DNA from: Shigella phage vB_SsoM_113
Sequence record: LR746311
Reading direction: 5' to 3' (one strand)
DNA length: 64,000 nt
Every line of letters starts with the position of its first letter. The stretch's first letter is position 1. The translations under genes and the position numbers were made by a program. This document shows, in pieces, positions 61,785-62,457 of this stretch. The notes beneath the pieces are model-generated. The model saw only the letters and a program-made list of their open reading frames with translations, was not told the DNA's origin and made no database searches.

Positions 61785-61840
61785 TTTCACAAAGTTGTTT
61801 ACACGTTGATGAGGTAGTGATACTATTACCTCATCAAAAA
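61781..61840 (+). promoter_or_regulatory. early promoter cassette A (copy 1 of 3) with embedded inverted repeat
   Basis: gatttaaaataatttcaca...GTTGTTTAC...gTGaTACTAT; 11-bp perfect inverted repeat TTGATGAGGTA / TACCTCATCAA around the -10 region. Confidence 0.55.
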
Positions 61841-61856
61841 TAATTAGGAAAATAAA

Positions 61857-62114
61857 ATGAAAACTTTCAAAGAGTTTGCTACAAAAACTACTATCACTGA
61901 ATCTTCCCACGGTATGGAAGTAAAGCTTGGAATGGCTTTAGCTGAAGCTGAGCGTCTTTTCTCTCGTATTAAAGAACTTGCTGCTGCAGTCGATCCTTCG
62001 TCTTTTAAAGGAGATCAAACTAAAGTTAAAGCGCTTTTAGCATTATGCTCCGATGCAGGAGAAATTGCTAAAAATGGTTCTAAGATGAAGAAACGATTAG
62101 AAGATTTAAAATAA
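61857..62114 (+). CDS. internal-protein-like small protein A (85 aa) with capsid targeting sequence
   Basis: N-terminus MKTFKEFATKTTITE resembles the T4 internal protein targeting sequence (MKTYQEFIAE-type, cut by gp21 after Glu); sits in the variable IP position after 57B. Confidence 0.6.
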   Translation: MKTFKEFATKTTITESSHGMEVKLGMALAEAERLFSRIKELAAAVDPSSFKGDQTKVKALLALCSDAGEIAKNGSKMKKRLEDLK

Positions 62115-62165
62115 TTTCATAGAGTTGTTTACTTCTGGGTAGTAGTGTGATACTATTACCCTATC
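62106..62165 (+). promoter_or_regulatory. early promoter cassette B (copy 2 of 3)
   Basis: gatttaaaataatttcatag-GTTGTTTAC-ttctgggtagtagtgTGaTACTATtaccc; a 44-bp core identical to cassette C. Confidence 0.55.
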
Positions 62166-62190
62166 AAAACAAAACCAAATGGAAAATAAA

Positions 62191-62415
62191 ATGAAATCAT
62201 TTAAAGAATTTATCGCTGAAGCTAAAAGACATGAAGATGAACTACCAATTGTTACGAAAACTTTTGATGGTACATTAAGTGATTTTAAAAAAATTCCTAG
62301 CGATAAACTTTCTAAGTTAACTGGCTCTATTAGTGAAAAGGATGGTAAAGTCACGTTTTCTGCTCGTGGCACTGCTAATCTTAAAAAGCTTTTGAAAGCT
62401 GCTGGAGCGGAATAA
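62191..62415 (+). CDS. internal-protein-like small protein B (74 aa) with capsid targeting sequence
   Basis: N-terminus MKSFKEFIAEAKRHE closely resembles the T4 internal protein targeting sequence; the track ORF starts 4 codons earlier (62179). Confidence 0.6.
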   Translation: MKSFKEFIAEAKRHEDELPIVTKTFDGTLSDFKKIPSDKLSKLTGSISEKDGKVTFSARGTANLKKLLKAAGAE

Positions 62416-62457
62416 GTTGTTTACTTCTGGGTAGTAGTGTGATACTATTACCCTATC
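62403..62457 (+). promoter_or_regulatory. early promoter cassette C (copy 3 of 3)
   Basis: GTTGTTTACttctgggtagtagtgtgatactattaccctatcaa, identical to cassette B over about 44 bp. Confidence 0.55.

Follow-up and report, generated by a model that had tools for sequence, protein, structure and literature searches.

Promoter-early stem-loops (PeSLs) were described for RB49 and phi1 as units of early promoter plus stem-loop, placed after the upstream gene's stop codon and ahead of the downstream gene's Shine-Dalgarno sequence (Arbiol et al. 2010, PMC2839356). The stem-loop is mostly located in the stretch that separates the -35 from the -10 box or over the -10 box, and the stems are drawn with G-T pairs (Arbiol et al. 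2010, PMC2839356). As reported in that paper, PeSL-like sequences with T4 early promoters and weaker, A/T-richer stem-loops occur at the two T-even internal-protein (IP) loci, a finding ascribed there to Repoila et al. 1994 (EMBO J 13:4181). These T-even elements have no polyG/polyC stems and were termed analogues, not homologues, of PeSLs (Arbiol et al. 2010, PMC2839356). Hairpins are also known from T4 late promoters: according to reviews, those of e, soc, 49, I-TevI and segB lie inside hairpins that mask the ribosome-binding site on longer transcripts, and one review states that all known hairpin-masked genes with internal promoters are late. Two reviews of T4 transcription and post-transcriptional control make no mention of hairpins over early promoters. 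Here, we analyse hairpins embedded in the early-type promoters of three small gene cassettes (A, B and C) of Shigella phage vB_SsoM_113 (LR746311). The window, i.e. the whole stretch of DNA that was analysed, comprises 64,000 nucleotides; positions refer to it, and features lie on the + strand unless stated otherwise. This kind of element is already known, as PeSL-like sequences of T-even IP loci, the present locus being one at which it was first noticed, and near-identical copies are present in T4.

Hairpins around the -10 box of early-type promoters

Hairpin A (61806-61837) is an 11-bp inverted repeat with 100% complementarity, formed by the 5' arm TTGATGAGGTA (61806-61816), the loop gtgatactat (61817-61826) and the 3' arm TACCTCATCAA (61827-61837). 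The loop holds an extended -10 region with the hexamer TACTAT at 61821-61826. Promoter and hairpin B occupy 62127-62161, with the -35 box at 62127-62132, the 5' arm GGGTAGTAGT at 62137-62146, the loop GTGAT at 62147-62151 and the 3' arm ACTATTACCC at 62152-62161. This repeat is 10 bp long and includes one G-T (G-U in RNA) pair; its -10 hexamer TACTAT is located at 62151-62156. Promoter and hairpin C (62419-62453) are laid out in the same way (-35 at 62419-62424, 5' arm at 62429-62438, -10 at 62443-62448 and 3' arm at 62444-62453), and a 45-nt promoter block is 100% identical between B (62123-62167) and C (62415-62459). The 5' arm falls into the spacer in all three cases; the loop contains the -10 hexamer in A, and in B and C part of the hexamer belongs to the 3' arm. 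This placement agrees with that of PeSLs. The stems are A/T-rich with three to five G-C pairs and measure 10-14 bp when G-U pairs are counted.

When the + strand was folded as RNA, A reached -20.1 kcal/mol (z = -5.2, none of 200 shuffled sequences being as good) and B reached -16.8 kcal/mol (z = -3.65), and the fold of C in its own context was weaker (z = -1.46). Rfam 15 covariance models gave no match at E values up to 1 on either strand of 61300-63400. RNase III sites need double-stranded RNA of roughly 20 bp, i.e. about two helical turns; the stems are shorter and by their length do not resemble such sites.

A preliminary description of this DNA, made from the sequence alone, had placed an 11-bp perfect repeat around the -10 box of A and one shared 10-bp repeat with a single G-T pair in B and C. 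The repeats were found as it gave them, and the RNA folding that it proposed as a check agrees, with the weaker result for C. Its further view that B and C carry changed arms at a position equivalent to that of A proved wrong. The helices differ in register, their centres being offset by 2.5 nt with five nucleotides of the -10 hexamer inside the 3' arm of B/C, and the 3' sides are only 2 nt different (TACCTCATCAA versus TACCCTATCAA). Because of the different registers, A and B/C represent convergent palindromy and not column-wise compensation. The compensatory covariation claimed between them is thus lost, and what is left of that claim is a comparison of A with a same-register hairpin of relatives, which comprises few events (see below).

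At the scale of the window, a single 11-bp perfect repeat is only mildly unusual: it contains four perfect inverted repeats that span 10 bp or more and enclose a loop of 3-12 nt, A among them, when 1.2 are expected. The argument against chance comes from position. We collected the 36 early-type promoters of the whole T4 genome that have a downstream Shine-Dalgarno sequence and start codon and calculated duplex energies between the spacer and the segment comprising the -10 box plus 30 nt, both for true partners and for mismatched partners, a control that keeps promoter consensus and base composition. True partners had a mean of -12.2 kcal/mol compared with -7.1 kcal/mol for mismatched ones (z = -11.3, permutation p < 5e-5), and a strong stem, i.e. 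-14 kcal/mol or better, was present at 16 of these promoters. For 63 sequence clusters from all loci, each with one representative, z was -11.6, and -14 kcal/mol or better was reached by 30% of self pairs versus 1.9% of cross pairs. Seven other neighbouring segment pairs lacked the pairing signal (z from -1.9 to +2.4), and the leader of the promoter's own transcript was slightly less structured than controls. The hairpins are thus placed specifically across the -10 box and the predicted start site. Given this positional recurrence and the difference between self and cross pairing, with z about -11, the palindromy is not due to chance, which was discarded as an explanation. Hence we conclude that the hairpin is real and non-random and looks selected.

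It might still be asked whether the hairpins have a function of their own or are by-products of constrained promoter parts, results of quasi-palindrome template switching, or passengers of a successful promoter module. B and C are copies of a single sequence, and T4 frd.1 carries this module as well, so these copies are not independent, and many early-type promoters as well as some recombinant cassettes do without a strong stem. Ripley and co-workers reportedly established quasi-palindrome correction as a mutational route in T4. Such correction predicts perfect DNA palindromes, not the one-sided G-U excess reported below. In addition, ten or more unrelated arm sequences are found at this one position, and the true pairs stand apart from mismatched-partner controls that share consensus and composition. 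We therefore consider hairpins without a function quite unlikely.

Strand bias and covariation of the stems

The composition of the stems gives an indication of the nucleic acid on which they act. With one representative per cluster, the strong stems contain 15.5 G-U (G-T) pairs and 2.1 A-C mismatches per draw, a ratio of about 7:1, in contrast to the cross-pair controls with 343 G-T and 330 A-C (about 1:1). Sense duplexes are more stable than antisense duplexes by 2.4 kcal/mol for true partners versus 0.8 kcal/mol for cross pairs. Both the G-U excess and the sense-strand stability are unexpected for a strand-symmetric DNA site, which argues for a sense-strand RNA helix rather than a DNA operator or cruciform.

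Several observations would nevertheless suit an element that works as DNA, either as the operator of a dimeric repressor over the -10 box or as a cruciform or hairpin that draws recombination enzymes and thereby leads to cassette shuffling. A is a perfect DNA palindrome with the same DNA fold on each strand (z = -5.27), its arms flank the -10 box as is common for operators, and recombinant cassettes have their junctions between the arms. The mechanism by which T4 early promoters are shut off is called unknown in a review, and a stem-loop-binding protein was speculated on by Arbiol et al. 2010. On the other hand, arm sequences vary from promoter to promoter without a common half-site and the mismatches are one-sided. 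Loops of 5-19 nt would probably be poor substrates for cruciform extrusion, and homologous recombination needs nothing but shared promoter sequence, a palindrome being dispensable. Taken together, a DNA-level role appears very unlikely. The operator of a dimeric regulator, one of two options in the preliminary description, is unlikely on the grounds of the differing arms and the asymmetry between G-T and A-C. Its other option, an RNA hairpin on read-through transcripts, fits the pairing bias and the start site predicted inside the 3' arm, and the hairpins are best read as sense-strand RNA hairpins on such transcripts. Its view that the palindromy is selected and not accidental likewise agrees with the self- and cross-pairing results, the signal being specific to the spacer and post-(-10) segments.

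Transcription from sigma-70 promoters usually starts 7 nt past the -10 box. With this spacing, the cassette's own transcript should start at about 61833 in cassette A, within the 3' arm, and the 5' arm would be located at -27 to -17. On this prediction the own transcript lacks the 5' arm, as with the hairpin promoters of the e, soc, 49 and I-TevI type, and the hairpin should therefore be foldable only on RNA that arrives from upstream.

For comparison, IP loci were taken from annotated phage genomes; pattern scans of viral contigs gave many unrelated chance matches and few T4-like contigs. In the register of A, a hairpin with the arms GATAGGGTA/TACCCTATC is found before tRNA.4-type genes. Compared with A (GATGAGGTA/TACCTCATC), two adjacent pairs are swapped on both sides, and a G-U intermediate, GATGGGGTA/TACCCTATC, exists, as does TGATGAGGTA/TATCTCATCA. 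In an alignment of 12 sequences in the register of A, pair 15-36 is GC in six, AU in three and GU in two sequences, pair 16-35 is AU in six, GC in five and GU in one, and 91.7% of cells are paired as opposed to 30-61% when the partner is slid. These compensatory changes with G-U intermediates are suggestive and comprise few independent events. Outside these arm families, the promoter before an internal-protein gene of Mosigvirus LF82-9 has different arms (AGGATGAT/ATCATCCT, -17.3 kcal/mol), and a promoter of Gaprivervirus SP18 has TGGGATA/TATCCCA. By means of G-U pairs, a G-rich 5' arm of the kind of ATGGGGT remains able to pair with ACCTCAT, ACCCTAT and ATCTCAT.

Possible roles on read-through transcripts

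If the hairpins form only on RNA from upstream, they could affect the translation, the synthesis or the stability of that RNA. A translational gate, in which the hairpin masks the ribosome-binding site on read-through RNA so that translation is tied to a start at the own promoter, is the mechanism established for the T4 late promoters of e, soc, 49 and I-TevI. It also suits sibling promoters. At window promoter 3555, the energy needed to open the ribosome-binding site is 0.27 kcal/mol for the own transcript versus 10.8 kcal/mol for read-through RNA, and seven of the 16 strong T4 hairpins include the Shine-Dalgarno sequence. In A and B, by contrast, the 3' arms end 9 and 18 nt short of the Shine-Dalgarno sequence. 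The opening energies are 1.45 (own) and 1.99 kcal/mol (read-through) for A and 2.27 and 2.94 kcal/mol for B, differences of 0.54 and 0.67, and with changes below 0.7 kcal/mol masking was rejected for these two cassettes. The change of 3.4 kcal/mol in C arises solely via long-range pairing of uncertain reality. Shuffling of either arm addresses the idea of insulation, in which the hairpin would keep the promoter-derived arms from pairing with the region of the translation start. It left the opening energy of B unchanged, altered that of A by no more than 1 kcal/mol and raised that of C from 3.7 to 5.2-7.9 kcal/mol. A gate would, moreover, conflict with the need of internal proteins for late translation off read-through RNA, and we regard it as highly improbable for these cassettes.

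The need for read-through RNA follows from the promoters available. The late-promoter motif TATAAATA does not occur within the cassettes, and the internal proteins are head components; their late synthesis would therefore need read-through RNA. The window has 25 copies of the motif versus 9.5 expected, and on the + strand those at 60724-60731 (inside gene 1, upstream of 57A) and 58365-58372 lie nearest and are candidate sources of late transcripts that enter the IP cassettes.

The same consideration bears on attenuation or termination, in which the hairpin would stop or slow RNA polymerase coming from upstream, the expression of each cassette would depend mostly on the promoter that belongs to it, and early transcripts would not accumulate downstream. 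A stem-loop of the RB49/phi1 type placed before lacZ cut expression about as much as rrnB T1, and this role was proposed there (Arbiol et al. 2010). Confinement of the hairpin to read-through RNA is what a terminator directed only at upstream transcription requires. Six T4 promoters with a canonical terminator upstream have weaker stems (mean -7.6 versus -13.1 kcal/mol, none at -14 or better), although with n = 6 versus 30 the p value is 0.18. The sequences themselves do not look like terminators. A U-tract is absent after A, B and C (AAATAATTA, TATCAAAAC and TATCAACTA) and after all 16 strong T4 hairpins, the 9-nt tails of which are A-rich with a mean of 1.8 T and in no case contain five or more T. 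The stems are A/T-rich with few G-C pairs, and a terminator scan of 60300-63690 returned no terminator-like site. A canonical Rho-independent terminator was rejected for these reasons. Blocked read-through would also abolish the only late IP mRNA, given the lack of a late-promoter motif in the cassettes. Overall, attenuation appears unlikely.

The best explanation we can offer, and we do so tentatively, is that the hairpins are the stem-loop parts of T-even 'PeSL-like' cassettes and act as sense RNA on read-through transcripts, with an intercistronic role in processing or stability. Each cassette consists of an upstream stop codon, an A/T-rich UP element, the -35 box, a hairpin with the -10 box in its loop and, past a short leader, a small gene preceded by its Shine-Dalgarno sequence. 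The hairpin would be carried by early read-through transcripts of a promoter-like site ahead of gene 1 and by late transcripts of the motifs at 60724 or 58365; these RNAs, like the start site and the stabilising role, are inferred, while the structure, its placement, the excess over chance, the sense-strand signature and the shuffling are seen in the sequences. On them, hairpins A and B could form folded punctuation between cistrons at the post-transcriptional level, flanked by A/U-rich single-stranded RNA. Stable intercistronic hairpins that lack a U-tract, such as the REP elements and the hairpin of malE-malF in E. coli, have been proposed to be barriers to 3'-exonucleases. In the same way, the phage hairpins might hinder exonucleases or the entry of RNase E, and the barrier would stabilise the upstream cistron, and possibly a processed downstream cistron, on the long read-through RNAs that would be the source of late internal proteins. 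Because the hairpin leaves translation alone, the free ribosome-binding site fits late IP translation from such RNA. The conserved block of promoter and hairpin would at the same time provide homology for cassette exchange.

A number of points weigh against this explanation. A strong stem is lacking at 20 of the 36 T4 early-type promoters, and five of 25 IP-locus cassettes, all of them recombinants, have weak stems of -5.9 to -10.9 kcal/mol, so that the hairpin is frequent and not obligatory. Homologous cassettes without the symmetry, which the preliminary description had named as counter-evidence, are thus partly encountered. As about seven of the 16 strong T4 hairpins mask the Shine-Dalgarno sequence, more than one function may be represented in the family. 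A mere stabiliser would also have no need to span the start site. The base for covariation is narrow, with essentially two arm families plus intermediates, and a joint change of the two adjacent pairs is conceivable; an appearance of compensation could also arise through hairpin-templated (quasi-palindrome) correction. Finally, the sole published functional test, the RB49-type stem-loop before lacZ, indicated attenuation or termination (Arbiol et al. 2010, PMC2839356).

Cassette exchange, sibling promoters and relation to known systems

The cassettes belong to a Tequatrovirus segment with the gene order 2 - 3 - 1 - 57A - 57B - internal-protein - tRNA. In it, gene 1 (dNMP kinase, 60362-61087), 57A (61087-61329) and 57B (61329-61784, stop at 61784) are followed by three small open reading frames (ORFs), past which the genes for tRNA-Gln, tRNA-Leu and tRNA-Gly begin at 63432. 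The 57A-57B region is 99.7% identical to that of Yersinia phage PYps32T and 95-99% identical to that of hundreds of T4/T6-like phages. The ORF of cassette A (61857-62114) encodes an Ip5-type internal head protein of 85 aa with an MKTFKEF... leader; it matches phrog_3499 'internal head protein' (E = 1.2e-49), and the annotations of GiZh and RB5 call it ipV/Ip5. Cassette B (ORF 62191-62415) encodes an Ip6-type internal protein, 74 aa from MKSFKEFIAE, that matches phrog_8765 'internal virion protein' (E = 7.5e-26) and is ipVI in the GiZh annotation. The ORF of cassette C (62477-62662) encodes a tRNA.4-type membrane protein of 61 aa (phrog_1692). An ORF that follows tRNA-Gly and runs off the end of the window (63680-64000) is a candidate GIY-YIG homing endonuclease within the tRNA cluster, comparable to segB in T4.

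All three cassettes have the promoter pattern GTTTAC-N18-TACTAT behind an A/T-rich stretch, which is the T4 early-promoter pattern, and a promoter scan listed cassette A with TG ahead of the -10 box. At A and B the pattern is preceded by TTTAAAATAATTTCACAAAGTT, which by sequence alone agrees with the PeSL promoter. The block upstream of hairpin A (61769-61802) comprises the last 57B codons (..DDLK*), an A/T-rich UP-like stretch and the -35 box GTTTAC at 61797-61802, and is a direct repeat, 91% identical to 62099-62132. Like PeSLs, the cassettes are intergenic, extending from the stop of one small gene to the Shine-Dalgarno sequence and start of the next, and are situated in a variable region. 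The Shine-Dalgarno region of cassette C, GGAGAATAAAA (62465-62476), fits the strong cleavage consensus of RegB, GGAGRAYARAA (PMC3014915). The internal-protein cassettes A and B have AGGAAAA and TGGAAAA without GGAG, which would fit an escape of IP mRNAs from inactivation by RegB.

The repeated unit extends into the flanking coding sequences (61769-61802 versus 62099-62132 and 61847-61877 versus 62181-62211). 57B and the Ip5 ORF both close with ...(D/E)DLK* followed by TTTCAYARAGTTGTTTAC, and the Ip5 and Ip6 ORFs both open with GGAAAATAAAATGAAA(A/T)C(T/A)TT(C/T)AAAGA(G/A)TTT, encoding the leader MK(T/S)FKEF. As the unit covers both edges of the ORF, cassettes are exchangeable by homologous recombination at either end with the ORFs remaining intact. 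Across nine genomes, the 57B-tRNA locus carries one to five cassettes per genome and 25 promoter cassettes in all, which fall into few arm types; stems of -12.5 kcal/mol or better are present in 20 of them. In the five with weak stems, the 5' arm of one type is joined to the 3' arm of another; cassettes of such mixed arms occur in RB5, VEc74, T4_ev240, GiZh and L031. Hence exchange also occurs between the arms, within the promoter, and the fold is not obligatory. In T4, ipI is preceded by hairpin A with 10 of 11 bp kept. The B/C module (GGGTAGTAGTGTGATACTATTACCC) is found at T4 promoter 146143, a long way from the IP locus, where frd.2 ends and upstream of frd.1, and has therefore moved between distant hyperplastic regions. 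With three copies in the window, the copy at frd.1 and the recombinant cassettes, the repeats serve as recombination sites as is the case for PeSLs. In GiZh, an 11-nt feature between ipV and ipVI (2339-2349), downstream of the ipVI promoter, is annotated 'direct repeat sequence8 posible binding site of StbAB'; we found no support for this StbAB binding-site annotation. In Gaprivervirus SP18 (9689-11240) and VR26 (9692-11149), the IP genes that follow 57B are spaced 8-60 nt from one another, and none has its own promoter or hairpin. Only some genera thus have the cassette architecture, and these two phages neither support nor refute a hairpin at the homologous spot.

Hairpins between spacer and post-(-10) segment were also present at window promoters 3555, 3947 and 12331. 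At the first (3555-3614; GTTTAC at 3555-3560, TAGTAT at 3579-3584), the spacer sequence TTCCTTTGTG (approximately 3568-3577) pairs with CAAAGGAG, which is the next gene's Shine-Dalgarno sequence. This promoter comes directly after a canonical terminator at 3480-3530 (GGACTCCTTCGGGAGTCC and then TTTTTTATTTT), and the same order of terminator and promoter is seen at T4 promoters 58780 and 15288. At the second (3947-3986), GGTACAGGATAT (3956-3967) and ATACCTGTACC (3976-3986) enclose the -10 box TATTAT (3970-3975), and the T4 homologue at 129918 reaches -18.2 kcal/mol. The minus strand of 3947-4021 is promoter-like as well (GTTTAA...TAATAT, at approximately 4021), which may reflect a divergent or mirror promoter or be a mere consequence of the palindrome. 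At the third (12331-12383), the spacer sequence TCGTGTTGTGT (12344-12354) pairs with ACATAACATGAGG (12371-12383), again including the Shine-Dalgarno sequence, with two G-U pairs.

The 16 strong T4 hairpins thus form two classes. The seven masking ones are situated upstream of denV, regB, alc, alt.-3, nrdC.8, motB.2 and ndd.4; the nine non-masking ones, which end at +1 to +10, belong to ipI, ipII, dmd, motB, cd.2, 30.7, e.7, mobD.2 and frd.1. The promoters of ipI, ipII and ipIII are all non-masking, with ipI and ipII among the 16 and ipIII having a stem of -10.0 kcal/mol. Four further T4 promoters (50973, 2458, 167086 and 55384) have a small hairpin that is confined to the spacer, with CCACAaggaTGTGG, CCACaaggaccGTGG or, as a perfect palindrome, CATAAAGCTTTATG; they match the PeSL subclass whose stem-loop is placed between -35 and -10. 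It is conceivable, if doubtful, that a genome-wide rule is involved in which about half of the T-even early promoters lie in the loop of a sense hairpin formed only on read-through RNA, with a masking and a non-masking class, each early gene having a promoter-dependent switch between mRNA isoforms. If so, the switch would extend the e/soc/49 paradigm from late genes to the early class, and modules could recombine with the fold kept, owing to G-rich 5' arms for which C and U are both suitable partners.

By itself, the finding changes little, as the hairpins are known stem-loop parts of the promoter cassettes for T-even internal proteins. Their function bears on how anti-defence genes, i.e. those for internal proteins, are swapped as ready-to-express modules, on how read-through and promoter-proximal mRNAs are kept distinct among dozens of strong tandem promoters, and on how proteins are produced late from cassettes with early promoters only. 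The position-specific pairing, the G-U bias and the two classes amount to a testable design rule for early regulatory regions of T4-like phages and could inform phage engineering.

Among the known systems, the IP-locus blocks of T-even phages (Repoila, Tetart, Bouet, Krisch 1994) are, as far as they are summarised by Arbiol et al. 2010, like the present ones in their location from 57B to the tRNA genes, in their Ip5, Ip6, ipI and tRNA.4 gene types and in having an early promoter and an A/T-rich stem-loop before each ORF. The T4 late-promoter hairpins share with A, B and C the promoter inside a hairpin and two mRNA isoforms of different structure, and with the sibling promoters the masked Shine-Dalgarno sequence; they differ in that the promoters are late and that the ribosome-binding site of A and B is outside the stem. 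Rho-independent terminators are likewise intergenic stem-loops, unlike A, B and C in having a U-tract and more G-C pairs. The REP and malE-malF stabilisers resemble A and B in the way in which the latter are proposed to work; REP elements have no sequence relation to them and do not overlap promoters. Stem-loops before ipIII, ipII and denV were reportedly noted by Valerie and co-workers in 1986. With PeSLs, the cassettes have in common the succession of stop codon, A/T-rich region, strong early promoter, stem-loop, Shine-Dalgarno sequence and small non-essential gene as well as the repetition in hyperplastic regions with exchange between copies. The promoter is of the T4 early type (GTTTAC-N18-TAnnAT) here and a plain sigma-70 consensus in PeSLs. 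The stems (TTGATGAGGTA, GGGTAGTAGT) are A/T-rich instead of G/C-rich, and terminator activity was reported for one RB49-type stem-loop only, a U-tract being absent here. Because they have neither polyG/polyC stems nor homology to the PeSLs of RB49/phi1, the cassettes are PeSL-like and not PeSLs in the strict sense. The presence of hairpins at about 45% of the T4 early-type promoters, their strict position, the G-U bias and the two classes with respect to the ribosome-binding site may go beyond the published accounts of these elements.

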